A stretch of 64,000 nucleotides of DNA from a bacterium (GCA_037200965.1 JBBCGK010000001.1:256001-320000), one strand, 5' to 3'. Numbered from the stretch's first letter, positions 36,732-63,217 are shown. Translations and numbers: made by a program. Notes: generated from the sequence alone by a model not told the origin.

Positions 36732-36871
36732 AAATCGAAGCGGGAAAGAAGTTGAAGAAGCCACAGGCGTATATTTCAAAGATAGAACGAGGCGAGCGCG
36801 GCGTTGATGCAGTCGAGCTCGCGGAGTTCGCAAAGGTTTACGGAAAACCGATGGATTATTTTATCAGGTAA
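36731..36871 (+). pseudogene. N-terminally truncated XRE-family (Cro/C1-type) HTH gene remnant abutting the tRNA-Ser 3' end
   Basis: The in-frame translation ...LKKPQAYISKIERGERGVDAVELAEFAKVYGKPMDYFIR* covers only helix 3 onward of an HTH_3 domain. No start codon or helix 1-2 precedes it. The frame runs into the tRNA. Confidence 0.5.
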
Positions 36872-36883
36872 CGTTTCATCATT

Positions 36884-37171: not shown

Positions 37172-37183
37172 GGAAGTTCGCGC

Positions 37184-39190: not shown

Positions 39191-39320
39191 CCAGGTTCTC
39201 CGAGGTTGAAGTTACTACCTATCCGAATACTTTATATAAGGAGCGACTGGCTCGGTCAAACATCCTCTTCAGGGGCCTGTTTCAAATCAGGAAATGTTAA
39301 AGTAAGCGGACTTATAGCCT

Positions 39321-45924: not shown

Positions 45925-46352
45925 ATGGGGAACAGTATACGCGAACGACAGGCTCGCGCGCCCAAAAGCGCGGCATAAACAGGGAAGTCGGAGCGGGGAA
46001 ATTGCGGGAGGGAAGTCGGACAAGGGGATTGCATTGTGTCTCGTTAGAAAGGCTATGTGCTGTCACATAGGGACTGCTGCTGCGTGCATCCAAAAAGGGT
46101 CTTGATCACCGCAGCCGAGCGATAGAGAGCCTATCCGGGACTATTTGACAGTATATGAAGATTGTATAGTTATCCACAGGTGCCGTTTACGAGATAAAAT
46201 CTAGATAAAATCTCGGTTAGGCAAGTTTTGTGTTTTGAGGTCATAAAATTATGACACGACTCCCCTGCTCCGCTGCTTCGTTTCAGCAAAATTATGTATC
46301 TCGTATCAAGAACTTATCGAGATCTGTATTCTTGAGTGTTTCAAATATACGG

Positions 46353-47030
46353 ATGCATTCGCGCTTTGAATACCTAAAGAACGAGGCGGTGAAGTTGCGC
46401 AAACGTGGAAAATCGTTGAGAGCCATCGAAGGCCTGCTTGACGTTCCTCGTTCGACACTCAGCGGGTGGCTTAAGAACGTTTCCCTGAGTGCGAAACATA
46501 AAGCGTCCCTCGAGAGGAAATGGAGGCTGGCGCTCACGATCGCAAGAACCGAAGCGGTCCGTTGGCACAATACCCAGAGAAACAAGAGACTGGAAGAAGC
46601 CGCTGAGGCAGCAGAAAAGACTCTTCAAAAGATAGGAGACGACTCAGAAATGCTTGAGCTCGCACTCGCTATGCTCTATCTCGGAGAAGGCGGAAAGACA
46701 AAGACGTCTCTTACTCTTGGAAACTCAGATCCGCTCATCGTGCGGTTTTATGTCAACGCGCTTGAGCGTTTATACGGAATCGCCAAAAGCAGGCTGCGGG
46801 CCGAGTTGCATTTGCGCGCGGATCAGGACGAAAACAAGTTAAAAAGATTCTGGTCGAAAGCGACCGGAATTCCCTTGAGACGTTTTGTATACAGCGTAAA
46901 GGATCAGCGCACTTTGGGCCGCGCGACCTATCCCGGGTATAAGGGCGTTTGTGCGGTATCCGGCGGGGGTGTGGCAATCCAGAGAAAATTAATGTATCTT
47001 GCTAAAGCATTTACAAAACGACATTCGTAA
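46353..47030 (+). CDS. HTH plus LAGLIDADG homing-endonuclease-like protein, paralog 1. The track ORF starts at 46251.
   Basis: HTH LRKRGKSLRAIEGLLDVPRSTLSGWL, LAGLIDADG-type motif LALAMLYLGEGGKT, then LGNSDPLIVRFYVNALERL. The stop lies 2 nt before tRNA-Val. Confidence 0.65.
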   Translation: MHSRFEYLKNEAVKLRKRGKSLRAIEGLLDVPRSTLSGWLKNVSLSAKHKASLERKWRLALTIARTEAVRWHNTQRNKRLEEAAEAAEKTLQKIGDDSEMLELALAMLYLGEGGKTKTSLTLGNSDPLIVRFYVNALERLYGIAKSRLRAELHLRADQDENKLKRFWSKATGIPLRRFVYSVKDQRTLGRATYPGYKGVCAVSGGGVAIQRKLMYLAKAFTKRHS

Positions 47031-47032
47031 AT

Positions 47033-47105
47033 GCGCGGTTAGCTCAATTGGTAGAGCACCTCGTTGACGTCGAGGGGGTAGTAGGTTCGAATCCTACACC
47101 GCGCA
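47033..47105 (+). tRNA. tRNA-Val (anticodon GAC)
   Basis: Acceptor gcgcggt/accgcgc, D-arm tagctcaattggtagagc, anticodon stem cctcg/cgagg with loop ttGACgt, T-arm gtaggttcgaatcctac. Confidence 0.8.
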
Positions 47106-47106
47106 C

Positions 47107-47964
47107 TTGATGCCTAAGACTATCGTTCTCTATCACGCCAACTGCCCCGACGGTTTCGGTGCCGCCTATTCGGCCTGGAAGAAGTTCGGTAACGAAGCGA
47201 TATACATTCCCGTGCGGCACGGCAAGCCCGTGCCGGAGCACCTTGCAGGCTCGGAACTCTATCTGCTCGATTTCACGTACGAGCGGCAGGAGATGGACGC
47301 GCTCAAGGCACTCGCCTCGCGCATCGTCGTACTCGACCACCATGAAGGGGTGCGCGATGTCGTCGAGAGCATACCCGAACATATCTTCGACTCGAAACGT
47401 TCGGGTGCGACGATCGCCTGGAGCTATTTCCACCCTGCCGAGCCCGTACCGGAGTTCCTCGAAATCGTCGCGAAGGCCGATCTCTATCTCCCGCTTGCAG
47501 ACGACGAGCGCGCGATCATCTCGTACGCGTACGCGCAGCCGTTCACGTTTAAGAACTGGGATTCGTTCGTCTCCCTCGTCGGGAATCCCGAAGAACGGGC
47601 GAAGCTTGTCGCCCGTGGTCTCGCCTATACCGAGCATTTCCAGCTCTTAGCGGCACAGATCGCGGAGCGCGCGGAACTCGTCTCGTTTGAAGGACACGAA
47701 GTGTATTTCGTCTCCGCTCCCCGGCTCTTCGCGACCGAGGTCGGCCATTTGCTGAATACGACACAGCCGCCGTTCGCTCTCATAGCTCGCGCGGAGCCTG
47801 ATGGAAGCCTGCGCGTCTCGATGCGCGCGGATACGACCGTCGACGTTTCGGCCATAGCCCGAAAATACGGCGGCAACGGGCATCCGGGCGCGGCCTCATT
47901 TTCAATCGACCGAAACGCTCCCCTTCCCTGGACGCCGATCAAGCATGAAGATTCTCGCGATTGA
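47107..47964 (+). CDS. nrnA: DHH-family phosphoesterase (NrnA-like oligoribonuclease / pAp phosphatase)
   Basis: HANCPDGFGAAY, DHH (VLDHHEG) and GGNGHPGAASF (GGGH) motifs. The ATG is at 47110, 4 nt after tRNA-Val. Confidence 0.75.
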   Translation: MMPKTIVLYHANCPDGFGAAYSAWKKFGNEAIYIPVRHGKPVPEHLAGSELYLLDFTYERQEMDALKALASRIVVLDHHEGVRDVVESIPEHIFDSKRSGATIAWSYFHPAEPVPEFLEIVAKADLYLPLADDERAIISYAYAQPFTFKNWDSFVSLVGNPEERAKLVARGLAYTEHFQLLAAQIAERAELVSFEGHEVYFVSAPRLFATEVGHLLNTTQPPFALIARAEPDGSLRVSMRADTTVDVSAIARKYGGNGHPGAASFSIDRNAPLPWTPIKHEDSRD

Positions 47965-49120
47965 AACAAGCTGCGACGAGACGGCGGTCTCGATACTTGA
48001 GTGCGAAGGAGATGAGCGGAGCGCGCGCTTCACGATTCTCGGAAACGCGCTCCTGTCGCAGATAGACCTGCATCAACAGTATGGCGGCGTCTTCCCCGCC
48101 CTTGCCAAGCGCGAGCATGCGAAGAATCTGGTACCGCTTCTCGAAGCCGCGCTCGAGGAAGCGGAACTCCTGCGCGAAGACGCTCAGGCAATGCCGCAGG
48201 ACGTTCACGACCGTATCGCGAAACTTCTCGAACGCGAGCCCGGGCTCTCGGAACTCTTTTTCGAATTCATACGGGAAGCGGAAACGCCCGGTATCGATGC
48301 TATCGCGGTCACGGCCGGTCCCGGACTCGAGCCAGCGCTATGGGTGGGAGTGAATTTCGCATCCGCGCTCGCGCTCGCGTGGGGCAAGCCCCTGATACCG
48401 GCAAATCACATGGAGGGACACGTGCTCTCCGCCCTGGCGGAAAGTAAAGATGAAAGGCTTCTGATCGAAGACGTATCGCTTCCGCTCCTCGCGCTCCTTA
48501 TCTCCGGCGGACATACCGAGCTCGTACTCATGAAAAGCTGGCTCGAATACGAGCTCATAGGACAAACGCGCGACGACGCGGTCGGCGAGGCGTTTGATAA
48601 GGCGGCGCGTATGCTCGGCCTCCCCTATCCCGGCGGCCCCGAAATTTCAAAGCTCGCCGACATAGCGCGCCGCGACTCTTCTCCGAATCCGTTCTCGCTT
48701 CCCCGTCCCATGCTCAAGGATCCGCATTGCGACTTTTCCTTCTCGGGCCTTAAGACTTCCGTGCTGTATCTCCTCAAAGGAATGCAGGAAGTTTCGGAAG
48801 TCGAGAAGCAGCAGATCGCACGCGAGTTCGAGGACGCGGTAGGCGAGGTACTGTGGGCAAAGACCGCGCGGGCGCTTGAAGAGACGGGAGCCAAGGTCTT
48901 GGTACTTGGCGGCGGAGTCTCGAATAACAAGCACATACGGAAGCTCTTCGCGGAAAAGATAACGGATGAATATCCGAATGTCTCGCTCCACCTCCCTACC
49001 GCGAGTCTCACAACCGACAATGCCGTCATGATCGGACTCGCGGGCTTCTATCGCTTCCTTCGCGGCGAGCGGGCGCTCCCCGGCGAACTCCGGGCGAACG
49101 GCAACCTCTCGCTTGTATAA
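47945..49120 (+). CDS. tsaD: tRNA N6-adenosine threonylcarbamoyltransferase
   Basis: MKILAIETSCDETAVSIL, and metal-binding H..GH (HMEGHV). Confidence 0.9.
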   Translation: MKILAIETSCDETAVSILECEGDERSARFTILGNALLSQIDLHQQYGGVFPALAKREHAKNLVPLLEAALEEAELLREDAQAMPQDVHDRIAKLLEREPGLSELFFEFIREAETPGIDAIAVTAGPGLEPALWVGVNFASALALAWGKPLIPANHMEGHVLSALAESKDERLLIEDVSLPLLALLISGGHTELVLMKSWLEYELIGQTRDDAVGEAFDKAARMLGLPYPGGPEISKLADIARRDSSPNPFSLPRPMLKDPHCDFSFSGLKTSVLYLLKGMQEVSEVEKQQIAREFEDAVGEVLWAKTARALEETGAKVLVLGGGVSNNKHIRKLFAEKITDEYPNVSLHLPTASLTTDNAVMIGLAGFYRFLRGERALPGELRANGNLSLV

Positions 49121-49156
49121 AAACCGTACCGCCTGGGTCGAGGCGGTACGGGAATC

Positions 49157-49324
49157 ATCGATTGTTGCGCACGGCGAGGAACCGATTGTCCGAATTCCAG
49201 TCGCCATCCCAGTTGTTCAGGTCGAGCTTCCAGTTGCCGTTGTCGTCGTTCCAGAGGATCGGGACGTTGCGATCATCGCCAACCTGGGCCGATATCGTGC
49301 GAAATACCGTCAGTACCACCATCC
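49157..49324 (-). pseudogene. Duplicated fragment of the C-terminal module of the downstream lipoprotein (a 55-aa ORF or remnant)
   Basis: The minus-strand translation MVVLTVFRTISAQVGDDRNVPILWNDDNGNWKLDLNNWDGDWNSDNRFLAVRNNR parallels the lipoprotein C-terminus ...GQSAQVGGDRYVPILWRGVGGRWGLGLRYWDGVWGSGNLFLAVRN. Nucleotide similarity 49160-49300 against 49640-49770. Confidence 0.5.
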
Positions 49325-49638
49325 ATTGAAAGCCTTAGCTGGTCTCTGGATTGAATCTTGTTTGGGATCTAAAATCCGCCAGTATTTTGCACCAACAGTC
49401 CTTTGATTTTGGACAAGCCCCGAGACGCGCTCCGGAAAACCATGGCCGTCCGGATTCCGGCCTAGCGAGGGTTGCGGACAGGTAGCCCGAAGCCGTGGCC
49501 GCAGGAAACTGTTCACCCGTCTTCTGCAGTATACAAAACAAAACTCGCGGACGCTTTCCAGGAAAGCAGTCCGCGAGGGTCCAAGGGCACGAGGAGTCAA
49601 AGCGCAGGGAATGCGCAAAGGATTCCAGGGCCCAAGGG

Positions 49639-50172
49639 TTAGTTGCGCACGGCGAGGAACAGATTGCCCGAACCCCAGACGCCATCCCAGTAGCGCAGGC
49701 CGAGCCCCCAGCGGCCGCCGACGCCGCGCCAGAGGATCGGGACGTAGCGATCACCGCCAACCTGGGCCGACTGGCCAAGACACACGGTCCAGTACGTGGG
49801 CGGACCGAGGTCGAAGTCCCGGCGATTCTTCGCGAGCGCCGCGCCGTAGGCGAGGCACTCTTCGAGATTTGCGGGCCGCAGGCTGTGGGCGCGCATCTCG
49901 TCGACCGCAGTCTTCGAGGAGATCGAACGGTTGAACGAGACGATCACCATGGTCTCGACGCGCTTCGTCTTCCCTTGGACCGGGAAGGCCGTTGCGGTAA
50001 TGGCGTCGTTGACCCAGTCGTAGTGCCCGGCCGCGATCATCTTCTCGTGGCTCTGGGTACTGTCGACGGTGATCTGGCGGTTTTCCGTCTTCCCCGACCC
50101 GCCGCCACACGCGCCGAGCGTGAACGCAAGCAACAATGCGGCGATCGCGCCGCTTATCGACCTATTGCGCAT
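49639..50172 (-). CDS. Lipoprotein, hypothetical
   Basis: Start at MRNRSISGAIAALLLAFTLGACGGG (lipobox LGAC). The track ORF extends to 50214. Confidence 0.55.
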   Translation of the reverse strand: MRNRSISGAIAALLLAFTLGACGGGSGKTENRQITVDSTQSHEKMIAAGHYDWVNDAITATAFPVQGKTKRVETMVIVSFNRSISSKTAVDEMRAHSLRPANLEECLAYGAALAKNRRDFDLGPPTYWTVCLGQSAQVGGDRYVPILWRGVGGRWGLGLRYWDGVWGSGNLFLAVRN

Positions 50173-50316
50173 GAATATGGCCCTCCTTTCAGTTAGCCAT
50201 GGATGGTGCGGCACCGTGCCGCGACATCTGTGTAAAATATATACATATTTGGTTAGTTGTCAAGTCTACCGGCCCGGATTCCCAAAACAAGCTTATATTT
50301 GCTATAGTTTTCGGTA

Positions 50317-52497
50317 ATGGACGAGAAATTCAGGAAACCATACAGCCCGGCCGATACCGAAACCCGCATCTATAAAAGATGGGAGGAAAGCGGGTATTTC
50401 AATCCTGATAACCTGCCCGGCAACCGCACGGAAGACTTCACCATCGTGCTCCCTCCCCCGAATGTCACGGGCGTCCTCCATATCGGCCATGCGTACGAGG
50501 ATTCCCTTCAGGATGCCGCCATCAGGTATGAGCGGATGCGCGGAAAGAAAGCGCTCTGGCTCCCGGGCACGGACTCGGCCGCGATAGCGACGCAGGCGAG
50601 GGTCGAAAAGAACATCCAGAAGGACGAGGGCAAGAGCCGCCACGATATCGGGCGCGAAGAACTCGTACGAAGAGTGAAGGAGTTTGCCAAGGCGAGCGAG
50701 GGAACCATCCTCTCGCAGGTACGGCGCATGGGAGCCTCTCTGGACTGGTCGCGCTACGCATACACGCTCGACGATGCCCGCACGAATGCAGTCACGACCG
50801 CCTTCGTCCGCATGTACGAGGCGGGCCTCATCTATCGCGGCAACCGCATCGTCAACTGGGATCCGAAGGGCCAGACCACCATTTCCGACGATGAGATCGT
50901 CCACGAGGAGCGCAAAGCGAAACTCTATACCTTCCGCTACGGCAAGGACTTCCCTATCCCGGTCGCGACGACCCGACTCGAGACGAAAGTCGGCGATGTC
51001 GCGGTCGCCGTGCATCCGGACGACGCGAGATACAAGAAATTCGTCGGGAAGGAATACGATGCGGTCTTCTGCGACGTGCCGGTGCATATCAAGGTGGTTG
51101 CGGACACAGCGGTAGAGCCGGAATTCGGGACCGGGGCGCTCGGGGTCACCCCCGCGCACAGCATGATCGACTGGGAAATCGCCGAGCGGCACGGACTTCC
51201 GAAGGACAGAATTGTGATAAACGAATACGCAAAGATGGCGGTCGAAGGACGGCTGAAGGGACTCAAGGTTGCCGACGCGCGCGAGACGGTCGCCGAGTGG
51301 CTCCGAAACGAAGGGCTCATGGAAAAGGAGGAAGATATCGTGCAGAACGTCGCGACTGCCGAGCGCACCGGCGGCATCATCGAGCCCCTGCCGAAGCTGC
51401 AGTGGTTCATGGCGGTCGACAAAGAGTTCGCGATTCCCCATTCGGAAATCCCGGGCATCGCCTCAGGGAGCGCGACGACCCTCAAGAAACTCATGCGCGC
51501 GGCGGTCGAGAGCGGCGGGGTCTCCATGCCGCAGGAGAACTTCCGGAAGGTGTACTTCCACTGGATCGACAACCTCCATGACTGGTGCATCAGCCGGCAG
51601 ATTTGGTTCGGCCACCGCATCCCCATCTGGTACAAGGACGGCGGGACGTATTGCGGCATTTCGGCCCCGGAAGGCGCGGGCTGGGAACAGGACCCGGACG
51701 TACTCGATACGTGGTTCTCGTCCGCCCTGTGGACCTTCTCGACGCTTGGCTGGCCGCAAGAAACGAGCGACTTGCGCACGTTCCATCCGACCGCCTTCAT
51801 GTCGCCGGCCTATGAAATACTCTCGCTCTGGGTTTCGAGAATGATACTCATGAGCGCCTTCCATTTGGGACAGGTACCGTTTCGTACCGTCCTTATACAT
51901 GGCCTCGTGCGCGACAAGCAGGGCCGCAAGTTCAGCAAGTCGCTTGCGAACGGCATAGACCCCCTCGACCTTATCGAGAAATACGGCGCGGACGCGCTTC
52001 GCATGGGACTTCTGGTCGGCACCGCGATTGGGGGCGACATCCGCTTCGACGAAGACAAGGTGAAGGGATACAAGCATTTCGCGAACAAGCTCTGGAACAT
52101 CGCGCGGTTCATTCTCGAAAACACCGGGAAGCTCGGGGATGTCTCGGCTGCAACTTTCTCGAAGGAAGACGAGGCGCTCCTCGCCGAATGCGGCGAGCTT
52201 GCGAAGGACGTGACGAAAGACCTCGACGAATACCGCTTCTATCTCGCCGCCGAGAAGCTCTACCACTACGCCTGGCACCGCCTCGCCGACGAAATACTCG
52301 AGCAGTCGAAACCGCTCCTGAATGGAGATGACGAAGCCGCCCGCAAGAGCCGCGCCCGGCTTCTTCTTGCGCTCCTTGACCGGATACTCCGGCTTCTCCA
52401 TCCGTTCATGCCGTTCGTCACCGAAGAAATCTGGTTCTCGCTCCCGAAAAGCCCGGATAGGGAGGAAATGCTGATGATCGCATCGTGGCCCTCCTGA
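50317..52497 (+). CDS. valS: Valyl-tRNA synthetase, compact form lacking the C-terminal coiled-coil
   Basis: HIGH motif PNVTGVLHIGHA, the editing domain, and KMSKS as KFSKSL. Confidence 0.9.
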   Translation: MDEKFRKPYSPADTETRIYKRWEESGYFNPDNLPGNRTEDFTIVLPPPNVTGVLHIGHAYEDSLQDAAIRYERMRGKKALWLPGTDSAAIATQARVEKNIQKDEGKSRHDIGREELVRRVKEFAKASEGTILSQVRRMGASLDWSRYAYTLDDARTNAVTTAFVRMYEAGLIYRGNRIVNWDPKGQTTISDDEIVHEERKAKLYTFRYGKDFPIPVATTRLETKVGDVAVAVHPDDARYKKFVGKEYDAVFCDVPVHIKVVADTAVEPEFGTGALGVTPAHSMIDWEIAERHGLPKDRIVINEYAKMAVEGRLKGLKVADARETVAEWLRNEGLMEKEEDIVQNVATAERTGGIIEPLPKLQWFMAVDKEFAIPHSEIPGIASGSATTLKKLMRAAVESGGVSMPQENFRKVYFHWIDNLHDWCISRQIWFGHRIPIWYKDGGTYCGISAPEGAGWEQDPDVLDTWFSSALWTFSTLGWPQETSDLRTFHPTAFMSPAYEILSLWVSRMILMSAFHLGQVPFRTVLIHGLVRDKQGRKFSKSLANGIDPLDLIEKYGADALRMGLLVGTAIGGDIRFDEDKVKGYKHFANKLWNIARFILENTGKLGDVSAATFSKEDEALLAECGELAKDVTKDLDEYRFYLAAEKLYHYAWHRLADEILEQSKPLLNGDDEAARKSRARLLLALLDRILRLLHPFMPFVTEEIWFSLPKSPDREEMLMIASWPS

Positions 52498-52516
52498 CAT
52501 GCGTTAGAATGGGTAC

Positions 52517-53224
52517 ATGACGGCTGAAGCCTTCGGCTATGCGTTCCTTGGAGGCGTCCTCCCCGCCCTCCTCTGGCTTTATTTCCTCCTCCGGGAAGAT
52601 TCCCGCTGCCCGGAGCCCAAGCTCATGATTCTGGTCGCTTTCTTCGCGGGCATGATCGCCGTGCCGCTCGTGCTTCCCCTGGAGCGCTTCGCATCCCTTC
52701 ATCTTGATCCGGGGCTTCCCGTGGTCGTGGCATGGGCTGCGATCGAGGAGGTCATAAAATACCTTGCCGCGGCCGTGGCGGTTTTATGGCGGTGGCGGAC
52801 CGTGAACGAATCCCCCGATCTCGTGATCTACATGCTGACCGCCGCACTCGGCTTCGCGGCGCTTGAAAACGCGCTCTTCCTCGTCGCCCCGATAGCGTCC
52901 GGACACTTCGTCGACAGCCTCATCACCGGGAACTTGCGTTTCGTGGGATCGACGATACTTCACGTCATCGCCTCGTCCTCGATCGGTTTCGCGCTCGCCT
53001 TCTCGTACAAGTCGAGCCGGGCGGTGCGCATGCTCGCCTCGACCGCCGGACTTATCCTCGCGATCACGTTGCACACCCTCTTCAATGTACTTATAATCGC
53101 CAAAGAGGTTTCCCACGTCCTCGCCGCGTTCTTCACCGTGTGGAGCGCCGCGGTCGTCTTTTTCGCCCTCTTCGAGATACTGAAATACCTGCGGTATCGC
53201 AATTTACCAAGAAACTCCTGCTAA
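52517..53224 (+). CDS. PrsW-family intramembrane metalloprotease
   Basis: IEEVIKY (EExxK), FAALENALF (FxxxE) and HVIASSSIGFA (Hxxx..G) motifs in a multi-TM protein. Confidence 0.6.
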   Translation: MTAEAFGYAFLGGVLPALLWLYFLLREDSRCPEPKLMILVAFFAGMIAVPLVLPLERFASLHLDPGLPVVVAWAAIEEVIKYLAAAVAVLWRWRTVNESPDLVIYMLTAALGFAALENALFLVAPIASGHFVDSLITGNLRFVGSTILHVIASSSIGFALAFSYKSSRAVRMLASTAGLILAITLHTLFNVLIIAKEVSHVLAAFFTVWSAAVVFFALFEILKYLRYRNLPRNSC

Positions 53225-53230
53225 CCACCT

Positions 53231-53731
53231 ATGATCACCAAGAAACGCTCCTTCTTCGAACGCCTTTCCGGTTCCGTCTCGGCCGGAAGCGACTTCGACT
53301 CTTTCGACGATGAGCTCCCGCAGGGAGAAACGGCGCGACCCGCGACCCGCGAGATCGGTGCCGCGCGCGGCGCGATCTATCAGACCGAAGAAGAGCCGGC
53401 GGAAGGCCAGCTTCCCGTCGACGTATACCAGACGCCGAGCGAAATCATGCTCCGGGCGTTCGTCGCCGGGGTCCGCGCCGAGGACCTCAACGTTTCCATA
53501 AGCCGCGACATGGTCGTGATCGAGGGCGCGCGCTCCGCGCGCGAGCAGATTTCTGACTCGGACTATTTCAATCAGGAGCTCTTCTGGGGATCGTTCGCAC
53601 GCAAGGTCCTGCTCCCGCAGGAAGTCGACGTGGACGGCTCTTCGGCAAGCGCGAAGGATGGACTTTTGACTATCACCCTTCCCAAGCTCGACAAGGCCCG
53701 CCAGACGAAACTCAAGGTTAAGTCTTCCTAG
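53231..53731 (+). CDS. Hsp20/alpha-crystallin-family small heat-shock protein
   Basis: The alpha-crystallin domain ends in GLLTITLPK. Confidence 0.75.
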   Translation: MITKKRSFFERLSGSVSAGSDFDSFDDELPQGETARPATREIGAARGAIYQTEEEPAEGQLPVDVYQTPSEIMLRAFVAGVRAEDLNVSISRDMVVIEGARSAREQISDSDYFNQELFWGSFARKVLLPQEVDVDGSSASAKDGLLTITLPKLDKARQTKLKVKSS

Positions 53732-53746
53732 AAAAGCAGCCCGGTA

Positions 53747-54826
53747 TCAAAGCGCCTCCGCCCGAAGCGGAGGCGCTTTGCTTACCGTTTCGACCTTGAA
53801 GCGTATCCGCCCGATCACCCGCCCGTCAGCCGTCTCGACTCCCACCCGCCAGCTTCCCGGAGCGAGATCGCTCTTGGCCGAATACCCGCGGTATCCGCCG
53901 TCGCGCCCGCCAAGGATCGGAAAGGAAATGCGGCTTTCCGTGATCCACTTCTCTTCCCGCTCATCGTAATGCTCCCAGCGGTGGACGATCGTAGTCGAGA
54001 GCTTCACGGGAGCGAAGACGGCGCTAAAGGCATACAGCGTTTCACCGGGAAGCATGTGCTCGACCGGAGCGAAGCCAAGCGATTCCCGCCAGGTCCGCGG
54101 CTCCGCTTCGCCCGCGTATCCTGCGGGGCCGCGGGAGACGGAGTGATAGGTTCCCGCGCTCTGGAGCGCGAGCGGGAGCGGCGGCAGGATATTCGTGAAA
54201 TAAAAGAGGTTGACGACCGCGAGTATCGCGAGCGCGCCTCCCCGGATTCGCCAGCGTTCGGCTAGGAAGCGCGTGCGGCCGATAAGGCGGAGGAGGATAA
54301 GAAATAGCGCGAAGAGCACGGCCGCGATGAGCCCCGAAAGCAGGAATGTCGAAGTTCCCATCAAGCCCGTGAATACCGGAACGGCGAGGATGGCGTAGGA
54401 ATAGAGGCCGAAGAACAGGAGGAGCGTCGTAAAGACGAGACGGTCGTGGTATTTGCCGAACACTTCGTTCCCGAGGAAAATCAACGCCAACAGAAAAAGG
54501 AATGGCCAAGATGCGGAAAGATCCGCGCTTCTCGCATAAAAGATAAGGAACCCGCTCCACATGCCGCCGAGCGCGAACTGGGTCAGAAGCGGCAGGACGA
54601 AACGGAAGCGCGGGAGCGGCCTTCCACCCCCGGCCCTCGTCTCGAAGAAATGCAGAAGCGCGATCGAGGCGGCGGCGAGCGCGATATAGCCTACGAACAG
54701 AGCCTGCGTCTGCGGCAGGTCGATGCGGCTGAAGAACACGTTGTCGGCGACGAAGCCCGCGACCATCGCCGCGGCGGACAGATGCCGCTCGTACTTCTGT
54801 ATCCAAGCGAAGAGCGGACGGAACAT
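53747..54826 (-). CDS. Multi-pass membrane protein, hypothetical, with a soluble C-terminal domain
   Basis: About eight TM helices. The start at 54826 lies 1-2 nt from the tRNA-Phe 3' end, so an internal start is possible. A bidirectional terminator hairpin lies at 53741-53778. Confidence 0.5.
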   Translation of the reverse strand: MFRPLFAWIQKYERHLSAAAMVAGFVADNVFFSRIDLPQTQALFVGYIALAAASIALLHFFETRAGGGRPLPRFRFVLPLLTQFALGGMWSGFLIFYARSADLSASWPFLFLLALIFLGNEVFGKYHDRLVFTTLLLFFGLYSYAILAVPVFTGLMGTSTFLLSGLIAAVLFALFLILLRLIGRTRFLAERWRIRGGALAILAVVNLFYFTNILPPLPLALQSAGTYHSVSRGPAGYAGEAEPRTWRESLGFAPVEHMLPGETLYAFSAVFAPVKLSTTIVHRWEHYDEREEKWITESRISFPILGGRDGGYRGYSAKSDLAPGSWRVGVETADGRVIGRIRFKVETVSKAPPLRAEAL

Positions 54827-54827
54827 G

Positions 54828-54899
54828 TGCCTGGGACAGGACTTGAACCTGCAACCCCTTCCGCTTCAAGGAAATGCTCTACCATTGAGCTACCCAGGC
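54828..54899 (-). tRNA. tRNA-Phe (anticodon GAA)
   Basis: The reverse complement gives gcctggg..tagctcaatggtagagc..stem ttcc/ggaa with loop tTGAAGc..T-arm caggttcaagtcctg..cccaggc+a. Confidence 0.75.
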
Positions 54900-54920
54900 A
54901 ATACGGGGCATAATACCAGA

Positions 54921-55616
54921 TTAATATCCTTCTTTCACGCCCTCAATCATACCCATCAAATAGTGGAACTTTGGAGTATCATTGACCTGAATCTGAAGGG
55001 TCCCCCACGGCAAACGGTTGTATGGGCGGATTCCCTTGCTGGCACCGGTAATTAGGTAGCTGCTTTTGAAAAAACGTTCCTTGGGAAGTCTTGTAATGCT
55101 GGCCCAATAACGGAGCGCTTCGGCCTCATTGATGTGCGGGTAGAGACGCATAACGAGACGTATCTTCTCAACAGGAATTTCCATAACTTCCCGTAAAAAA
55201 CGCAGGAATACCCGTATCATCTCCGGATCTGAATTAACGAAACTGATAGTGTGGCACATGCGCGCCTTGCCATCCACCACCTTAAGTCTTTTGTACCCTT
55301 CCGCCCAATAAAGAAGAGCGCCAGCAAATAGCAGGTTTGCCTTGGAAAACTTCGGGACAACCGTTCTTCCTTCCCGCGCGGCATTGCGCGCTCGACGTTC
55401 CGCGTGAACGGTTTGCATCTTGTTTCTTTTTAAGAACGCGTCCGTCACTCCAAGACGGACTCGGGCCTTAAGGCGTGCGTTCGCTTTGTCTGAAAGTACT
55501 AAGTCGCGAAGCCATAGTGACAGCGTCGATTTCGCTACCGGAACTTCCTTCCGAATTTCGTTGTAACTCTTGCCCGCTATCCGCAGTCTGACCGCCCGGT
55601 CTCGAAACGGGTTCAT
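54921..55616 (-). CDS. HTH plus LAGLIDADG homing-endonuclease-like protein, paralog 2
   Basis: HTH LRIAGKSYNEIRKEVPVAKSTLSLWL, LLFAGALLYWAEGYK, then FVNSDPEMIRVFLRFLREV. The stop lies 21 nt upstream of the tRNA-Phe 5' end on the same strand. Confidence 0.65.
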   Translation of the reverse strand: MNPFRDRAVRLRIAGKSYNEIRKEVPVAKSTLSLWLRDLVLSDKANARLKARVRLGVTDAFLKRNKMQTVHAERRARNAAREGRTVVPKFSKANLLFAGALLYWAEGYKRLKVVDGKARMCHTISFVNSDPEMIRVFLRFLREVMEIPVEKIRLVMRLYPHINEAEALRYWASITRLPKERFFKSSYLITGASKGIRPYNRLPWGTLQIQVNDTPKFHYLMGMIEGVKEGY

Positions 55617-55697
55617 CGATCCTATTTTACTCTAGCCGGTTCGATTATCGCACACTATCTTTGTGGATAGAAAACTGATCTTCTATCCACTTAAACC

Positions 55698-56159
55698 CTA
55701 CGGCACCGCGACGCAGACGCCCGTTTCGGCGTTGCAGAATACCCCGCCGCAGTTCTGGCACTCCATCTTATACACCGAATATTTCCCGGAACCGATGAGC
55801 GCGAGACCGAAGGATGCGGCCGCAAGAAGAAGCTCGAACTCGATGCCCGAGAATCCGTGCGCCGCGCCGACGAGCGCGGCCGCGACTATCATTTCAATCC
55901 CGAAGAGGACGCCGAAGGCGCGCGTCGCGATACCGAGAATAAGCGCGAGACCGCCGATCACCTCAAGCCAGCCGATGAAGTACGCGACCCAGGGCCAGAA
56001 CCCGAGCGTGCCGAAGAAAACGGCAACCTGCGAGATGTTCTCCACTTTGTCCCAGCCATGGACGAGGAAGATGAGGCCGACCACGAGCCGTATGAGGAGA
56101 AGGCCGAAAGACCGCTTATAAAAGAACCTGCCCGCGCCATTGAGGGTGTCGATAAGCAT
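55698..56159 (-). CDS. DoxX-family membrane protein
   Basis: LLIRLVVGLIFLVHGWDKV... four-TM DoxX pattern. Confidence 0.65.
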   Translation of the reverse strand: MLIDTLNGAGRFFYKRSFGLLLIRLVVGLIFLVHGWDKVENISQVAVFFGTLGFWPWVAYFIGWLEVIGGLALILGIATRAFGVLFGIEMIVAAALVGAAHGFSGIEFELLLAAASFGLALIGSGKYSVYKMECQNCGGVFCNAETGVCVAVP

Positions 56160-56209
56160 GCCGTGAAGCTATGAGGATAATGCCGGAAATTATAGCACTG
56201 GTTTTTGAG

Positions 56210-56282
56210 TGTCCCCACCCGGAATCGAACCAGGATCGGAGGCTTAGGAAGCCCCTGTTCTATCCAATTGAACTATGGGGAC
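56210..56282 (-). tRNA. tRNA-Arg (anticodon CCT)
   Basis: The reverse complement gives gtcccca..tagttcaattggatagaac..stem ggggc/gcctc with loop ttCCTaa..T-arm cctggttcgattccggg..tggggac+a. Confidence 0.75.
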
Positions 56283-56288
56283 GCAAGA

Positions 56289-56921
56289 TTATACTAGCCG
56301 TTTACCTGATTCTGCGCCAATAAGACCTATGGCACTTTGCACGAATAAGCGTTCCTGTATCCCCGACGACACCCGAACTCGGCACATTCCGTACGGCAAT
56401 TTCCCTTTCTTTTTCCCTTTGATTATTTCAATCCTGGTAATCTTTGCGATCGGCAACCCGGTAACTCGAGCCCAGAATATCTTCGCTCTTTGAACAGGGA
56501 TATCATCATGAAGCCGGAGAGAAAGCGAGAGTCTTGCTGATGCAATGTTAAGCGTACGAAGACAGCGGAGGAAAGTACATATAAGAGATGGATCTGAATT
56601 TATCAATGAAAAGTCCTTTTTCGTACCTTCACCCCAATAAATGCCAATAAGGAGAAACAAGAGATCTCTATTTGAAAGCCTCCCCAAAGCTGACGACGAG
56701 CGCTCCAGGATACTTTCGCGTCGAGCTTGGGAGCGCTCTCGTGAACCTCCTTGTTTCCCCCTAAGCAGCGCCTGAAATTCGGGAAGGACTGAAACATGCT
56801 GAACGTAGCGCAGCACGGTTGTTTTGGAGGTTCCTGTTTCTTTAGAAATTTCCGGAATACTTTTGCCTTTTTTTCGTAAATGTACAACTCGGTTACGCTG
56901 TTGCTCGGATATTTTTCTCAT
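56289..56921 (-). CDS. HTH plus LAGLIDADG homing-endonuclease-like protein, paralog 3
   Basis: HTH LRKKGKSIPEISKETGTSKTTVLRYV, LLFLLIGIYWGEGTK, then LINSDPSLICTFLRCLRTL. The stop lies 6 nt upstream of the tRNA-Arg 5' end. Confidence 0.65.
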   Translation of the reverse strand: MRKISEQQRNRVVHLRKKGKSIPEISKETGTSKTTVLRYVQHVSVLPEFQALLRGKQGGSRERSQARRESILERSSSALGRLSNRDLLFLLIGIYWGEGTKKDFSLINSDPSLICTFLRCLRTLNIASARLSLSLRLHDDIPVQRAKIFWARVTGLPIAKITRIEIIKGKKKGKLPYGMCRVRVSSGIQERLFVQSAIGLIGAESGKRLV

Positions 56922-57024
56922 ATACTTAAATATACCTGACTACCTATTAGTATAGAGATGCTTTATCCACTTTCTGGAAGCAAAGATCCGGCCTTGGAAT
57001 GGGTGTTTTTGCTCACCGCGCCCT

Positions 57025-57285
57025 CTAGCCCGCAATTCCCAGGAGCGAAGAAAGTTTCTCCTTGTCGAATCCGACGACCATCTCTTCGCCGATGTAGATA
57101 ACCGGCACGCCCATCTGTCCGCTCTTGTCGATCATCTCCTGGCGCTTCTGGAGGTCAGTCGCGACGTTGTAATCGGTGAAGGCGATGCCGTGCTCCTTGA
57201 AAAAATCCTTGCTCATCTGGCAGAAATGGCAGGTGGGTGTGCTGTAGATGGTAACGGTCTTTTGGGCTGGTGCTGGTGTATCCAT
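57025..57285 (-). CDS. Glutaredoxin-like protein (NrdH/Grx family)
   Basis: TVTIYSTPTCHFCQMSKDFF (CxxC) in a thioredoxin fold, with ..GVPVIYIGEEMVVGFD. Confidence 0.7.
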   Translation of the reverse strand: MDTPAPAQKTVTIYSTPTCHFCQMSKDFFKEHGIAFTDYNVATDLQKRQEMIDKSGQMGVPVIYIGEEMVVGFDKEKLSSLLGIAG

Positions 57286-57333
57286 GGTTATTTCGTTATA
57301 GCCCTAGTATAGCATTTTCGGTTATCAACAGCC

Positions 57334-57873
57334 TTAGTCCGGTGTTTTCTCGAAGTGCTGCCAGTCCTTCGGGTTCCAGTCGCCACCCCACTTCCAGCCA
57401 CAGGACTTGAAGATAGCGGCAATATCCTCCGTTATCGTACCCGGTACCGATATGTCATACACGGCGCCGGAAGGAGCAACTGCGCCGTCGATGCCGATAT
57501 AGGGATTGAGAAGCGGATTCAGGTCGATGGCACGCCCATAGGAGTGATTCGAGAGCCTCTTCGTTTCGCCGTAAATTACCCGGTAACTGAATGCGGAAGT
57601 GTTATTCGCCGCCATCGAAGCGTCGTCGTCCCAGTTGTAATGCGTGATCGGGATAATTTGGTGGATAGGAAACCGCCTCTTGAAAAGCTCCTCGAAGATT
57701 TCCCGCATCTCCCTTGCGACATCCTTGTGCACTATCAGCTGCCCTTCATGCTTATTTCCGTCGAAAGAAATATGGGGCACAGAAATAATACTGAGCTCCT
57801 CTTTAATTTCGTCCGGAATCTCCTTGCCGCGCAAGGCCTCTTCGAGTGTCACGGGTAGTTTAGATGAAATCAT
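57334..57873 (-). CDS. M15-family zinc metallopeptidase (VanY/D-Ala-D-Ala carboxypeptidase-like, LAS superfamily)
   Basis: SNHSYGRAIDLNP (SxHxxGxAxD) and WKWGGDW...DWQHFE (His ligand). Confidence 0.7.
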   Translation of the reverse strand: MISSKLPVTLEEALRGKEIPDEIKEELSIISVPHISFDGNKHEGQLIVHKDVAREMREIFEELFKRRFPIHQIIPITHYNWDDDASMAANNTSAFSYRVIYGETKRLSNHSYGRAIDLNPLLNPYIGIDGAVAPSGAVYDISVPGTITEDIAAIFKSCGWKWGGDWNPKDWQHFEKTPD

Positions 57874-61414: not shown

Positions 61415-63217
61415 TTATCGGTCGCTTCCCTGCACCATTTTCATGAACACCTCTTCCGGAATATTTACCTTCCCCGTACCGTGCTCCTTGAGCTTCTTCT
61501 TTCCCTTCTTCTGCTTCTGAAGAAGCTTGTTCTTGCGCGATACGTCGCCGCCATAGAGCCCTGCCGTCACGTCCTTCCTCATCGCCGAGAGCGAGCGCGA
61601 AGCGATGATGCGTCCGAGTGCCCGCGCCTGAATTTTCGCGACGAACTGTTGTTTGGGAAGTATGTCGTGGAGCTTTTCGACCATCTTCTCCCCTTCCTCC
61701 TGTACCCGCCTCCTTGAAATCACGCGCGCGAACGCAGGCACCGGCTCCTCCGCGACGAGGATGTCGAGCCGTACGACATCCGCCGGACGCTCGTCGAGGA
61801 ATTCATACGAGAGCGACGCATACCCCGACGATACGCTCTTTACCCGGTCGAAAAAGCCGCGCATGAGTTCCCGAAGCGGCATCTCGGCCGTCATCTCGAT
61901 GCGCCCGTCGTCATAGCCGATGGTACCGGTCGTGTTCGCCTCATGCTCGTGAAAAAGCTGCACCAATGCGCTCACCGCATCCGGCGGCATAAGCACTATC
62001 ACCTTCACCCACGGCTCTTCGATGAGCTCGATATCCCCGAAGTCGGGAAAGCGCGAAGGAGTATACACGACTTCCCTGCCCTTGCGGGTCGTGACCGCGT
62101 ACGCGATGGTCGGGATGGTGACGATAAGGGCGAGCGAGAACTCGCGCTTCAAACGTTCGGAAATGATCTCGAGGTGGAGCATGCCGAGGAATCCGCACCG
62201 GAAACCCCGGCCGAGCACTCCGGACGACTCCTCCTCAAACGAAAGCGAGGAATCGGTGAGCCGGAGGCGCTCGAGCGCCTGGCGAAGCAAGGGAAGGTCA
62301 TCCTGACTCTCGGGGTATACCGAGGCCCAGACGACCGGCCGGGGCCGCTCGAAGCCTCCCAGGGCCGGGAGAAGGCCTCTTGGAACCCCTATCGTATCTC
62401 CCACCGCCACCACCCCCGGCTCCTTGACCCCGGTGATCACATACCCGATCTCGCCGGGGCCGAGCATCTCGGCAGGAGTTTCGTCGGGCGCGAAGATGCC
62501 GACTTCAAGCGCGGTGAAGGTATTCCCCGCTGCATGGAATAGAAGCGGCTGTCCTTTCTTCAGGGTTCCGTCGAAGACGCGCAGATAGACGGTGACGCCG
62601 CGATGCGTCGAATATGAAAAGTCGAAGATGGTCGCGCGCGGTTCGTCCGCGACCGCGGCGCGCGGCGGAGGCACCCGGTCGACGACCGCCCCGAGAAGCT
62701 CGTCAACCCCCTCGCCGCTTTTGCCGGAGACCGCGAGTACCGTGTCCGGAGAAACCGCAAGGAGTTTCGCGAGCTCCTGCTTCACTTCCGGCACGCGCGC
62801 GTACGGTGAATCGATCTTCGAGACGACCGGTATGATCGTACAGCCCGCGTTCTTCGCCATCGCGAGCGTTGTCAGAGTTTGCGCCTGGACACCCTGCGTC
62901 GAGTCGACGAGGAGGAGAACGCCTTCGACCGCGGAGAGCGCCCGCGACACTTCGTATGAGAAGTCGATATGCCCCGGCGTGTCGATGAGGTTCAAAACAT
63001 AACTCGTTCCGTTCTTTTCGTACTTCATCCGCACCGGCTGCATCTTGATCGTGATGCCGCGCTCGCGCTCGAGGTCCATGCGGTCGAGCACCTGGTCCCG
63101 CATCTTGCGCGTCTCTATGGTGTGGGTGGCCTCAAGAAGCCGGTCGGCAAGCGTCGACTTACCGTGGTCCACGTGTGCCACGATGCTGAAGTTCCTCAGA
63201 TTATATAATTGTGCCAT
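61415..63217 (-). CDS. lepA: Elongation factor 4 (LepA)
   Basis: NFSIVAHVDHGKSTLADRL, DTPGHIDF, and the LepA-specific C-terminal domain. Confidence 0.9.
   Translation of the reverse strand: MAQLYNLRNFSIVAHVDHGKSTLADRLLEATHTIETRKMRDQVLDRMDLERERGITIKMQPVRMKYEKNGTSYVLNLIDTPGHIDFSYEVSRALSAVEGVLLLVDSTQGVQAQTLTTLAMAKNAGCTIIPVVSKIDSPYARVPEVKQELAKLLAVSPDTVLAVSGKSGEGVDELLGAVVDRVPPPRAAVADEPRATIFDFSYSTHRGVTVYLRVFDGTLKKGQPLLFHAAGNTFTALEVGIFAPDETPAEMLGPGEIGYVITGVKEPGVVAVGDTIGVPRGLLPALGGFERPRPVVWASVYPESQDDLPLLRQALERLRLTDSSLSFEEESSGVLGRGFRCGFLGMLHLEIISERLKREFSLALIVTIPTIAYAVTTRKGREVVYTPSRFPDFGDIELIEEPWVKVIVLMPPDAVSALVQLFHEHEANTTGTIGYDDGRIEMTAEMPLRELMRGFFDRVKSVSSGYASLSYEFLDERPADVVRLDILVAEEPVPAFARVISRRRVQEEGEKMVEKLHDILPKQQFVAKIQARALGRIIASRSLSAMRKDVTAGLYGGDVSRKNKLLQKQKKGKKKLKEHGTGKVNIPEEVFMKMVQGSDR

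Follow-up and report, generated by a model that had tools for sequence, protein, structure and literature searches.

A candidate DnaA-box operator at tRNA-linked HTH/LAGLIDADG-like genes of Paceibacteria-like Patescibacteria

Genes and box sites of the locus

The window, i.e., the whole 64,000-nt stretch of DNA from an ultra-small bacterium analyzed here, contains three genes, P1, P2, and P3, that are true paralogs sharing 29–30% amino-acid identity (Table 1). They form a LAGLIDADG-like family in which linkage to particular tRNA genes is fixed: family members are linked to tRNA-Phe, -Arg, -Val, -Gly, and -Pro genes, and to tRNA-Gln/Asn genes in Actinomycetota. In the P1 orthologs of loci L001 and L144, tRNA-Val(gac) is likewise the next gene downstream. 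Judged from these sequences, the retention of one tRNA species per subfamily through deep divergence is more suggestive of long-term residence than of active homing.

A Pfam search of the paralogs returned no LAGLIDADG match, and the LAGLIDADG-like domain gave no significant Foldseek or PDB sequence match. All three proteins carry the (Y/L)xGEG/AEG motif, the motif helix ends with the conserved acidic residue, and 26 family members share Y103, E106, G107, and K109 without exception. In likeness to free-standing LAGLIDADG homing endonucleases (HEs) and WhiA, an invariant ...Y-x-x-E-G-x-K... helix end together with NSDP corresponds to the LAGLIDADG acidic residue, and a DNA-binding HTH domain has been added. 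Unlike that of WhiA, however, the HTH domain of the paralogs is N-terminal and of the resolvase type.

Presence or absence at a conserved site is seen for P2 only. At the tRNA-Phe site, P2 is present in the window and in L027 and is absent from the syntenic site in L134, L136, L139, L140, and L142; this polymorphism at a conserved target-like site, in the 5′ flank of a tRNA gene, is a likeness to homing endonucleases. P3 is present in all syntenic relatives examined.

Table 1. Coordinates of genes, box sites, and promoter elements, counted from the first nucleotide of the window.
Feature	Position	Strand	Description
Site at non-HE-like gene	16178–16186	+	ATATCCACA; 4 nt upstream of TTGACA-N18-TAGGGT promoter-like site
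P1 box	46170–46178	+	TTATCCACA; perfect 9-mer match to DnaA box
P1	46353–47030	+	HTH plus LAGLIDADG-like protein; ORF open from 46251
tRNA-Val(gac)	47033–47106		directly after P1
tRNA-Phe(gaa)	54827–54899		after P2; own extended −10 promoter at 54910–54938
P2	54921–55616	−	231 aa
Imperfect inverted repeat	55638–55644 and 55602–55608	−	TCGAACC and GTTTCGA; flanks −10 hexamer and ATG of P2
P2 −10 hexamer	55624–55629	−	TAAAAT; 7 nt before ATG; probable
P2 proximal box	55662–55670	−	top strand TGTGGATAG; gene strand CTATCCACA; 1 mismatch
P2 distal box	55683–55691	+	CTATCCAC(T) = CTATCCACT; 2 mismatches; inverted relative to proximal box
DoxX gene	55698–56159	−	
DoxX-upstream box-like site	56172–56180	−	TTATCCTCA; 1 mismatch; 13–21 nt upstream of DoxX gene
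tRNA-Arg(cct)	56209–56282		after P3
P3	56289–56921	−	210 aa
P3 −10 hexamer	56929–56934		TATATT; probable
P3 box	56963–56971	+	TTATCCAC(T) = TTATCCACT; 1 mismatch; gene strand GTGGATAAAGC, reversed
Glutaredoxin-like gene	57025–57285	−	promoter TGTTGATAA-N10-TATACT-N20-ATG
Glutaredoxin promoter box	57322–57330	+	TTATCAACA; 1 mismatch

A sequence-only reading of the window had reported a perfect DnaA-box match upstream of P1, an inverted pair upstream of P2, and a further box upstream of P3, and all four sites are present in the window sequence at the positions it gave. Relative to their genes, the P1 and proximal P2 boxes are forward, whereas the P3 and distal P2 boxes are reversed. The P1 box lies in the 329-nt spacer between a P-type ATPase gene (−) and P1 (+), within a conserved non-coding block (46120–46232) that is homologous to positions 700–830 of L133, where three boxes are found. 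Since P1 probably starts at M35 (46353), as in its orthologs, this box probably lies ~175–183 nt upstream of the gene, not ~75. The P2 pair occupies the region 46–74 nt upstream of the P2 start (55616); the proximal box spans −54 to −46 from the ATG, with 41 nt from its beginning to that of the −10 hexamer. The P3 box is located 42–50 nt upstream of the P3 start (56921). At P2, the insertion/deletion unit has the box at its 5′ edge.

Further sites precede other genes. The DoxX gene, with its box-like site, is absent from the corresponding position in relatives, and the site at 16178 accompanies an ORF (16290–16805) that is not HE-like. Within the window, the perfect 9-mer is found at 46170 and 5686, and many related loci also have it.

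Recurrence, conservation, and promoter layout

Judged on the window only, recurrence of the motif at three paralogs is borderline versus chance. TTATCCAC occurs four times against 1.04 expected, a count of at least four being reached in 3/100 shuffles; 5.1% of random triples of window upstream regions have a common 7-mer; and among 9-mers of equal composition the word is only within the top 1.6%. A box is found in 5/40 upstream regions of the window. At ≤1 mismatch, the whole window has 19 sites versus 5.3 ± 2.2 expected, a number reached in 0/100 shuffles. The densest stretch is the 1.8 kb from 55600 to 57400, which contains six boxes (≤1 mismatch) where a local Markov model predicts 0.25 ± 0.49; no simulation out of 2000 reached this cluster. 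Each of the four intergenic spacers in this stretch has one box, the other two lying in coding sequence (56147 and 57093), and five of the six are in or beside the four promoters.

Comparison with relatives decides the matter for P2 and P3. Among 69 non-redundant loci of P2 relatives, 35 have TTATCCACA (≤1 mismatch, gene strand) between −75 and −35 (binomial P ~3e-62), mostly 51–54 nt before the ATG. Close P2 orthologs have the box (≤1 mismatch) in 18/25 cases, always on the gene strand and 16 times at −51 to −54. Gene-strand matches in P2 relatives number 38 between −100 and −1, compared with ~0–0.9 per kb elsewhere. In the 100-nt regions preceding P2 relatives, the 7-mers with the strongest enrichment are ATCCACA (25/69 loci, 73-fold) and TATCCAC (53-fold), both of which outrank the −10 words. 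Overall, the box is enriched about 50–70-fold upstream of family members, so that the outcome in which the motif is equally frequent genome-wide does not hold for P2 and P3. A position weight matrix anchored only on TCCACA recovers a preceding T (26/34), T (27/34), and A (27/34), i.e., the full TTATCCACA. The consensus is thus the complete asymmetric 9-mer, of the TTWTNCACA form, with all nine positions equal to those of the DnaA consensus. Selection acts on the 9-mer but not on its flanks.

The box stays with the P2-type gene across at least four different upstream neighbors, and double or triple boxes occur at the window P2 and in L102, L116, and L127, including double or inverted arrangements comparable to that of the window. 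At P3, a reversed box is found in 8/8 distinct orthologous loci (window included), with 0–2 mismatches, ~42–50 nt before the ATG. The motif therefore also accompanies copies elsewhere, its position being fixed in P2 and P3 orthologs from dozens of contigs. It is not specific to HE-like genes: the glutaredoxin promoter box is conserved in 8/10 loci, a perfect TGTGGATAA with the same architecture occurs in L134, L136, L139, L142, L065, L069, and L072, genomes lacking P2 retain the boxes at P3 and glutaredoxin, and further promoters with a box include those at window position 16178 and in L118 and L132. P1 orthologs have no conserved box at the proximal promoter. Among ~50 diverse family members belonging to other Patescibacteria, Saccharibacteria, and Actinomycetota, the box is present in only 1; on this sampling, the motif is restricted to one clade. 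The related genomes remove the doubt about chance for P2 and P3 but not for P1. Of the shared operator proposed for all three paralogs, a selected cis-element of the P2 and P3 promoters is supported.

A sigma-70 scan found no canonical promoter for P2, P3, glutaredoxin, or DoxX. The P2 promoter has no −35 match, and its −10 hexamer 7 nt before the ATG suggests a leaderless mRNA. Likewise, TATAAT is found 6–8 nt before the ATG in 31/35 box-bearing orthologous loci. With a good −10, no −35 match, and the ATG 6–8 nt after the −10, these promoters are probably leaderless. Scores for the −35 are poor in box-bearing and box-less promoters alike (3.0 of 6), and an extended −10 TG is present in 17% of box-bearing versus 54% of box-less promoters. 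Spacing between box and −10 falls into two classes, 39–41 nt and 31–32 nt; in the P2 group, the box starts ~40 nt before the −10 hexamer, the second class starting ~31 nt before it. In the P3 group, the box is reversed at a similar distance, and at glutaredoxin it lies over the −35 region. Distance and orientation are fixed within each orthologous group. A second element, the imperfect inverted repeat around the P2 −10 hexamer and ATG, appears in orthologs as TCGTAC(C) at −27 to −21 and (G)GTACGA at +9 to +15, with a compensating change in L058 (TCGCAC/GTGCGA).

Candidate roles of the box

The fixed promoter position in dozens of relatives indicates a selected control site rather than chance. 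This very 9-mer is the sequence that DnaA recognizes, as a monomer and irrespective of orientation. Indeed, the copies are forward at P2, reversed at P3 and glutaredoxin, and gathered in the six-box cluster, in keeping with the either-orientation, multiple-copy habit of DnaA boxes. On balance, we favor, with moderate confidence, the view that the motif is a DnaA-box-type operator in mostly leaderless promoters without a −35 element in a Paceibacteria-like lineage of Patescibacteria. The gene set under its control would comprise the tRNA-Phe-linked P2, the tRNA-Arg-linked P3, related subfamilies linked to tRNA-Gly and tRNA-Pro, the glutaredoxin-like gene next to them, and a small number of other genes. 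The replication initiator DnaA would bind the box via its domain IV and modulate initiation at these weak promoters. The box center at about −45 to −48 in P2 and P3 would favor activation by recruitment of RNA polymerase, the direction being a guess, whereas overlap of the glutaredoxin box with the −35 region suggests occlusion. Expression of the target genes would then track DnaA activity and, with it, the replication and growth state of the cell. Neither dnaA nor oriC of this genome was found in the window or in the related loci examined; DnaA-box-like sequences have been reported near the origin of a CPR member (Peregrinibacteria) (PMC4736985).

To date, DnaA boxes have been described as transcriptional operators at E. 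coli dnaA and nrdAB, in the B. subtilis regulon and its clusters, and at P. aeruginosa gidA (PMC4447404, PMC3245932, PMC13438810). The sites described here resemble these operators in having the identical 9-mer, in either orientation, in or just upstream of promoters and scattered over neighboring intergenic regions. Important differences are nevertheless present. Known DnaA-regulated promoters usually have several boxes; here there is usually one, placed rigidly ~40 nt before the −10 of a probably leaderless promoter with no −35. The main targets are tRNA-linked LAGLIDADG-like genes, at which DnaA is the putative ligand. To our knowledge, such genes have not been known as DnaA targets. The presence of a redoxin gene among the targets recalls the control of ribonucleotide-reductase genes by DnaA. 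The absence of the box from P1 orthologs and from family members outside the clade also speaks against a DnaA operator.

Part of this evidence would also fit a dedicated transcription factor other than DnaA, the identity to the DnaA box being coincidental, although we regard this as unlikely. Candidates are the HTH/LAGLIDADG-like proteins themselves, through auto- or cross-regulation (compare the LAGLIDADG-derived regulator WhiA), or a clade-specific regulator. Position and orientation are strictly kept in each orthologous group, the box is strongly concentrated at family promoters (~50–100%, versus 5/40 other upstream regions of the window), and its restriction to one clade resembles a lineage-specific regulon. 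However, dimeric HTH regulators do not typically use one asymmetric 9-mer in both orientations, nine of nine positions match the DnaA consensus, the box is also kept at the glutaredoxin promoter and other genes, and P2-less genomes keep the boxes of P3 and glutaredoxin. Moreover, the putative recognition helices of the paralogs have diverged (RSTLSGWLK, KSTLSLWLR, and KTTVLRYVQ) while the 9-mer is common to them, so that autoregulation by each paralog's own HTH through the 9-mer, an earlier proposal, is unlikely. The family-specific inverted repeat TCGTACC/GGTACGA already offers a separate autoregulatory site and, from its pattern in orthologs, is a better candidate than the 9-mer. It seems quite improbable that the 9-mer, not read by DnaA, is the control site of an undescribed tRNA-locked HTH/LAGLIDADG-like gene system, whose products would bind a DnaA-box look-alike and cross-regulate one another and neighboring host genes or, alternatively, compete with DnaA for it, thereby coupling an endonuclease family, selfish or domesticated, to the control of replication.

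Boxes that do bind DnaA may instead serve mainly outside transcription, the 55.6–57.4 kb region being a locus that titrates or inactivates DnaA or part of an unusual origin; this appears very unlikely. The excess of boxes in this region would suit such a role, as would L133, where three boxes lie within 80 nt between convergent genes, away from any promoter. In E. coli, the DnaA-box cluster datA neighbors the glyV-X-Y tRNA operon, with an interplay between tRNA transcription and DnaA binding (PMC10950094), and clusters of boxes in B. subtilis regulate their neighbors and restrain initiation (PMC3245932). Like datA, the present cluster is outside oriC and interleaved with tRNA genes. Yet datA is compact and non-coding and carries an IHF site that promotes hydrolysis of DnaA-bound ATP, whereas the boxes here are single, unpacked, and distributed among four promoters that are separated by genes, and the constant spacing from box to −10 hexamer indicates a role in the promoter. 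A bacterial oriC likewise has several copies of the same 9-mer within ~2 kb, but no compact non-coding box array, identifiable AT-rich unwinding element, or nearby dnaA/dnaN is present here, and the genes between the boxes leave no non-coding origin-like core. Cumulative GC skew falls steadily across the window, from 0 to −0.69, with no minimum or inflection at 46 or 55–57 kb, and neither dnaA nor dnaN is among the window ORFs scanned. With no dnaA in the window and no turn in GC skew, an origin is unlikely, in agreement with the sequence-only reading.

That reading had also offered the box as a terminal or recognition sequence of the mobile unit. Such a role, as target or boundary of an inserted homing-endonuclease gene, is highly improbable. 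In its favor, P2 is present or absent at syntenic tRNA-Phe sites, in filled sites 0–7 nt separate the stop codon of the preceding gene from the box, which there marks the 5′ end of the insertion, and the box moves with the gene into different neighborhoods. The idea fails, however, because the box is on one side only and is also found at non-mobile genes. The 3′ end of the unit has no matching copy, its 3′ junction being the tRNA-Phe promoter; the empty sites listed above (L134, L136, L139, L140, and L142) have neither box nor half-site; the glutaredoxin and other non-HE-like promoters keep the box; the distance is fixed to the −10 hexamer and not to the junction; and family members from other phyla have the same tRNA linkage without the box.

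Lastly, chance recurrence or a tRNA D-arm remnant (GTGGATAGAGC resembles the D-loop/D-stem of many tRNAs) is scarcely tenable: although the window-only statistics are marginal and the reversed P3 box with its flank, AATTGGATAGAAC, resembles the D-arm AAGTGGATAAAGC of the downstream tRNA-Arg, chance is excluded by the cross-genome statistics, the P2 boxes are opposite in orientation to the D-arm copy, the tRNA-Phe of the window lacks GGATA, the conserved TGTG/CACA end is a feature of the DnaA box and not of the D-arm, and glutaredoxin promoters are not adjacent to a tRNA, all of which contradicts this explanation for P2, P3, and glutaredoxin; it may hold for the single P1 site.

Implications for transcription control in Patescibacteria

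Patescibacteria have tiny genomes with very few recognizable regulators, and their transcription control is almost unknown. A box of DnaA consensus whose place in the promoter is preserved across dozens of uncultured lineages provides a concrete candidate regulon. It suggests that the replication initiator may double as a promoter-specific transcription factor at −35-less, probably leaderless promoters, and it links such control to a large unannotated LAGLIDADG-like family situated immediately upstream of specific tRNA genes. If DnaA indeed binds, these promoters would constitute a simple system for studying how one box acts from a constant distance to the −10, and for asking what ties endonuclease-like genes, a redoxin gene, and tRNA loci to replication status. 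If it does not, the box defines the target of a new regulator.

Three paralogs, their tRNA genes and the boxes of the window

The window derives from a Patescibacteria MAG (NCBI locus tags WDN10_01880 and WDN10_01935) and has a GC content of ~59%. P1, P2 and P3, the three homing-endonuclease-like genes, are true paralogs sharing 29–30% amino acid identity with each other. Each encodes an N-terminal HTH of the resolvase/transposase type, followed by a C-terminal domain marked by the invariant signature Y..EG.K...NSDP, and each ends ~20 nt or less from a same-strand tRNA gene. Since alignments of the P1 orthologues (226–234 aa) begin at M35, the true start of P1 is placed at 46353, and the 259-aa ORF is probably 34 codons too long (46251–46352).

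In the window and in comparison loci L001–L145, fetched from other genomes and metagenomes, members of this family almost always lie immediately 5′ of a same-strand tRNA gene, with stop codons anywhere from ~40 nt inside it to 56 nt ahead of it. One tRNA is kept per subfamily: Phe(gaa) for P2-like, Arg(cct) for P3-like and Val(gac) for P1-like genes. The partners of other groups are Gly(gcc), Pro(tgg), Arg(tct), Trp or Met; in Actinomycetota, the partner is Gln or Asn, or the gene directly follows tRNA-Gly. None of the more than 1100 homologues carries an informative annotation, most being "hypothetical protein". The tRNA-Phe gene is served by a separate extended −10 promoter, embedded in the last P2 codons or directly following them, ~8–10 nt 5′ of the mature tRNA end; L058, L065 and L068 have one at the corresponding position. 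The window also holds a gyrA gene split by an intein and a free-standing LAGLIDADG_3-type ORF of a family distinct from P1–P3. The latter sits immediately 5′ of lepA, the start of which it overlaps; in relatives, MurJ is followed by LepA at that place and the ORF is absent. A low-GC stretch with short low-GC3 ORFs adjoining tRNA-Glu and tRNA-Ser may be foreign or degraded DNA.

Features of the window, with loci of other genomes where indicated
Feature	Position	Strand	Sequence	Remark
gyrA with intein	10680–14489	−		Pfam Intein_splicing and LAGLIDADG_3 (endonuclease domain)
ORF, no Pfam hit	15017–16030		TTATGCACA	two copies inside, opposite orientations
Three boxes	15520–15528, 15788–15796, 16178–16186		TTATNCACA-type	within 700 nt, ~1–2 kb from gyrA
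Last of the three	16178–16186		ATATCCACA	4 nt 5′ of a TTGACA promoter-like site
Low-GC stretch	36000–40000			49% GC vs ~59%
Hairpin	38326–38361		CAAGGGGC / 20-nt loop / GCCCCTTG	loop holds TGTGGATAC, a one-mismatch box; stretch without a confident gene
Conserved non-coding block	46120–46232			L133 700–830
Tandem duplication in block	~46193–46214		AGATAAAATCT	window copy
P1 site			TTATCCACA	perfect
P1	46251/46353–47030	+		then tRNA-Val(gac)
tRNA-Phe promoter	54910–54938	−	TGGTATTAT or TGGTATATT	extended −10
P2	54921–55616	−		then tRNA-Phe(gaa)
P2 with promoter and box	54921–55700
Family inverted repeat	55602–55644	−
P2 proximal site			CTATCCACA	as read on gene strand
P2 distal site			CTATCCACT	inverted
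tRNA-Arg(cct)	56209–56282		AATTGGATAGAAC	sequence of its D-loop and D-stem; also L027 1639–1710
P3	56289–56921	−		then tRNA-Arg(cct)
P3 site			TTATCCACT	reversed relative to gene
Reversed P3 box and flank	56960–56975		AAGTGGATAAAGC
Glutaredoxin box	57322–57330			one mismatch
LAGLIDADG_3-type ORF	63201–63950	−		motif GYIDAEGTF

The box is a 9-base motif identical to the E. coli DnaA-box consensus, and mismatches are counted against TTATCCACA. The sequence-only reading had placed four such sites upstream of P1–P3, and all four were found again in the window sequence. Judged from the window alone, however, their recurrence is only suggestive, the statistics being marginal: TTATCCAC occurs in 4 copies against 1.04 expected, which 3 of 100 shuffles match; in 5.1% of draws, three of its upstream regions picked at random have some 7-mer in common; and among 9-mers of equal composition the box reaches only the top 1.6%. 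Sites with at most one mismatch number 19 (5.3 ± 2.2 expected). Between 55600 and 57400 there are six boxes against 0.25 expected, a count that none of 2000 simulations reached; the glutaredoxin, P3, DoxX and P2 promoter spacers hold one each, and two lie in coding sequence.

Conservation of the box across genomes

For comparison, 52 loci of the family were drawn from genomes, and metagenomes supplied another 80, all of P2 relatives. A gene-strand box with at most one mismatch lies within −75 to −35 in 35 of 69 non-redundant P2 relatives, in 25 of these at −51 to −54; with a background rate of 1.2 × 10−4 per position in the same DNA, the binomial P is ~3 × 10−62. Of the 25 closest orthologues (identity of 54% or more), 18 carry a box with no more than one mismatch, a number that rises to 23 when two mismatches are allowed. 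The position profile is one sharp strand-specific peak, and an unbiased 7-mer count of the upstream regions is topped by ATCCACA (73-fold enriched) and TATCCAC (53-fold), above the −10 words. Anchoring on TCCACA only recovers T-T-A at the three preceding positions with unconstrained flanks; therefore, the selected word is the complete DnaA consensus. The box stays with P2 whether the upstream neighbor is a 97-aa ORF, another ORF, a tRNA gene or, in the window, DoxX. After the marginal window-only statistics, it is these cross-genome tests that reject chance.

P3 orthologues were taken from L027 and from further contigs. A reversed box with 0–2 mismatches is present in all eight distinct P3 loci, the window included, and reads (G/T)TGGATA(A/G)A(G/T)C on the gene strand at approximately −49 to −42; an extended −10 element (TGnTATATT) follows, with the ATG 6–8 nt further on. 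The YruB-type glutaredoxin gene adjoining P3 upstream has its own conserved reversed box, in the layout TGTGGATAAC-N10-TATACT-N20-ATG. This box is perfect in L134, L136, L139, L142, L065, L069 and L072, and absent in L027 and L141. Promoter-proximal boxes are also seen in L118, in L132 and at position 16178 of the window.

The proposed recurrence at three paralogs thus stands for P2 and P3, but not for P1, among whose orthologues (L133, L144, L145 and L001) the box is not conserved, the nearest matches being two-mismatch variants in two of them. The perfect P1-side box of the window belongs to a separate conserved non-coding block. In L133 this block is found at a distance of 700 nt, where the DUF1653 and Sua5/TsaC genes converge, and 80 nt hold three boxes, including two perfect, inverted ones. 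In the block, the perfect box is followed by AAAATCTCGGTT.GC.AG. Chance, or a remnant of a tRNA D-arm, is a possible explanation for the lone P1 site only, both being excluded for P2, P3 and glutaredoxin; a D-arm origin was rejected on the wrong orientation at P2 and a TGTG end unlike a D-arm. The reversed P3 box with its flank does resemble the D-loop/D-stem of tRNA-Arg, a likeness judged to be coincidental because neither the TGTG end nor the P2 orientation fits.

Family members from outside the clade (Saccharibacteria, Levyibacteria, Uhrbacteria and Actinomycetota) retain the tRNA linkage but not the box, which is present in only 1 of ~50, and several of them have ordinary TTGACA-N17-TATAAT promoters instead.

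Promoter geometry and competing readings of the box

Box-bearing P2-type promoters have a strong −10 hexamer (mean match 5.3 of 6), whereas their −35 match (3.0 of 6) is no better than that of box-less relatives; an extended −10 TG is found in 17% of the former vs 54% of the latter. The ATG lies 6–8 nt 3′ of the −10 hexamer in 31 of 35 loci, which implies leaderless mRNAs. The distance from box start to −10 hexamer is 39–41 nt in 24 loci (41 nt at P2 of the window) and 31–32 nt in six, the two classes differing by about one helical turn. A consensus sigma-70 scan detected no canonical promoter at P2, P3, glutaredoxin or DoxX, its sole find being the tRNA-Phe promoter inside the P2 end. The box is centered at about −45 to −48 in the weak promoters of P2 and P3, and over the −35 region at glutaredoxin. 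Its asymmetric 9-mer equal to the DnaA consensus, its use in both orientations, its occasional doubling and its promoter position point to a transcription-factor site, not a sigma element.

A factor other than DnaA, including the paralogs' own HTH, would be consistent with the fixed geometry and with the concentration of boxes at family promoters. The recognition helices of the paralogs have diverged, however, and the box is also conserved at the glutaredoxin promoter and persists in genomes without P2. The operator suggested earlier is shared but not specific to the endonuclease-like genes; it is probably not their own, and autoregulation by their HTH through the box is unlikely. A separate family-specific inverted repeat, TCG(T/A)ACC at −27 to −21 and GGTACGA at +9 to +15, surrounds the −10 hexamer and ATG in the window and in L054, L056, L058, L063, L065, L066, L068 and L071, with a compensating change (TCGCAC/GTGCGA) in L058. 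The repeat is a better candidate for an autoregulatory operator than the box. In the more distant subfamilies of L105 and L129, long perfect palindromes (arms of 18–19 bp) occupy the same place, and the repeat arm is similar to the complement of GGTTCGA, the tRNA T-loop sequence.

A DnaA-titrating locus would fit the notable box density, and a tRNA operon likewise neighbors E. coli datA (PMC10950094); the boxes, however, are tied to promoters. In line with the sequence-only reading, the region is probably not an origin of replication: the window has neither a GC-skew inflection nor, among the ORFs scanned, dnaA or dnaN, and tblastn with approximate DnaA fragments gave no match in the window or the fetched loci.

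Nor is the box likely to be the end of a mobile element, the other role suggested for it. P2 is indeed an insertion/deletion with the box at its 5′ edge: in L027, P2 with promoter and box lies between a small ORF, replaced by DoxX in the window, and tRNA-Phe, and P2 is absent from the same site in L134 (2531–2901), L136, L139, L140 and L142, where tRNA-Phe directly follows a 90–97-aa ORF. Apart from this, the P2-less loci share the gene order of the window (LepA, DivIC, tRNA-Gly, glutaredoxin, P3, tRNA-Arg, small ORF, tRNA-Phe, DUF2914, HSP20, PrsW, aminoacyl-tRNA synthetase). However, the 3′ edge has no partner box, the empty sites show no vestige of one, and non-mobile genes share the box.

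Other candidates were rejected: a known RNA element (Rfam gives only tRNAs in the window and five related loci), a −35 element (gap to the −10 hexamer of ~30 nt, not 17; both orientations used), a general tRNA promoter element (the remaining window tRNAs have no nearby box, and tRNA-Phe has its own promoter) and an upstream-gene terminator (the P2 inverted pair could give an 8-bp stem, with no T-run after it, and a terminator scan was negative). LexA, parS, NrdR and DNA-uptake-sequence look-alikes were set aside on their consensus sequences, which are palindromic or far more frequent.

DnaA as candidate reader

The word recognized by monomeric DnaA is precisely this one, and at box clusters away from oriC the protein has an established role as a transcription factor (PMC4447404, PMC3245932, PMC13438810). 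DnaA is the obvious candidate to read the box at these promoters, its binding and the direction of regulation being inferred, and we lean slightly towards this assignment. The element would work like the DnaA-box operators of E. coli, B. subtilis and P. aeruginosa, but differs from them in its single consensus box, its rigid distance to the −10 hexamer and its probably leaderless promoters without a −35 element. A literature search found no paper on the motif in Patescibacteria or on the tRNA-linked gene family, the nearest statement concerning DnaA-box-like sequences near a Peregrinibacteria origin (PMC4736985). The setting is new: the box is conserved across many uncultured Paceibacteria-like lineages and is concentrated on unannotated, tRNA-locked LAGLIDADG-like genes and one redoxin gene.
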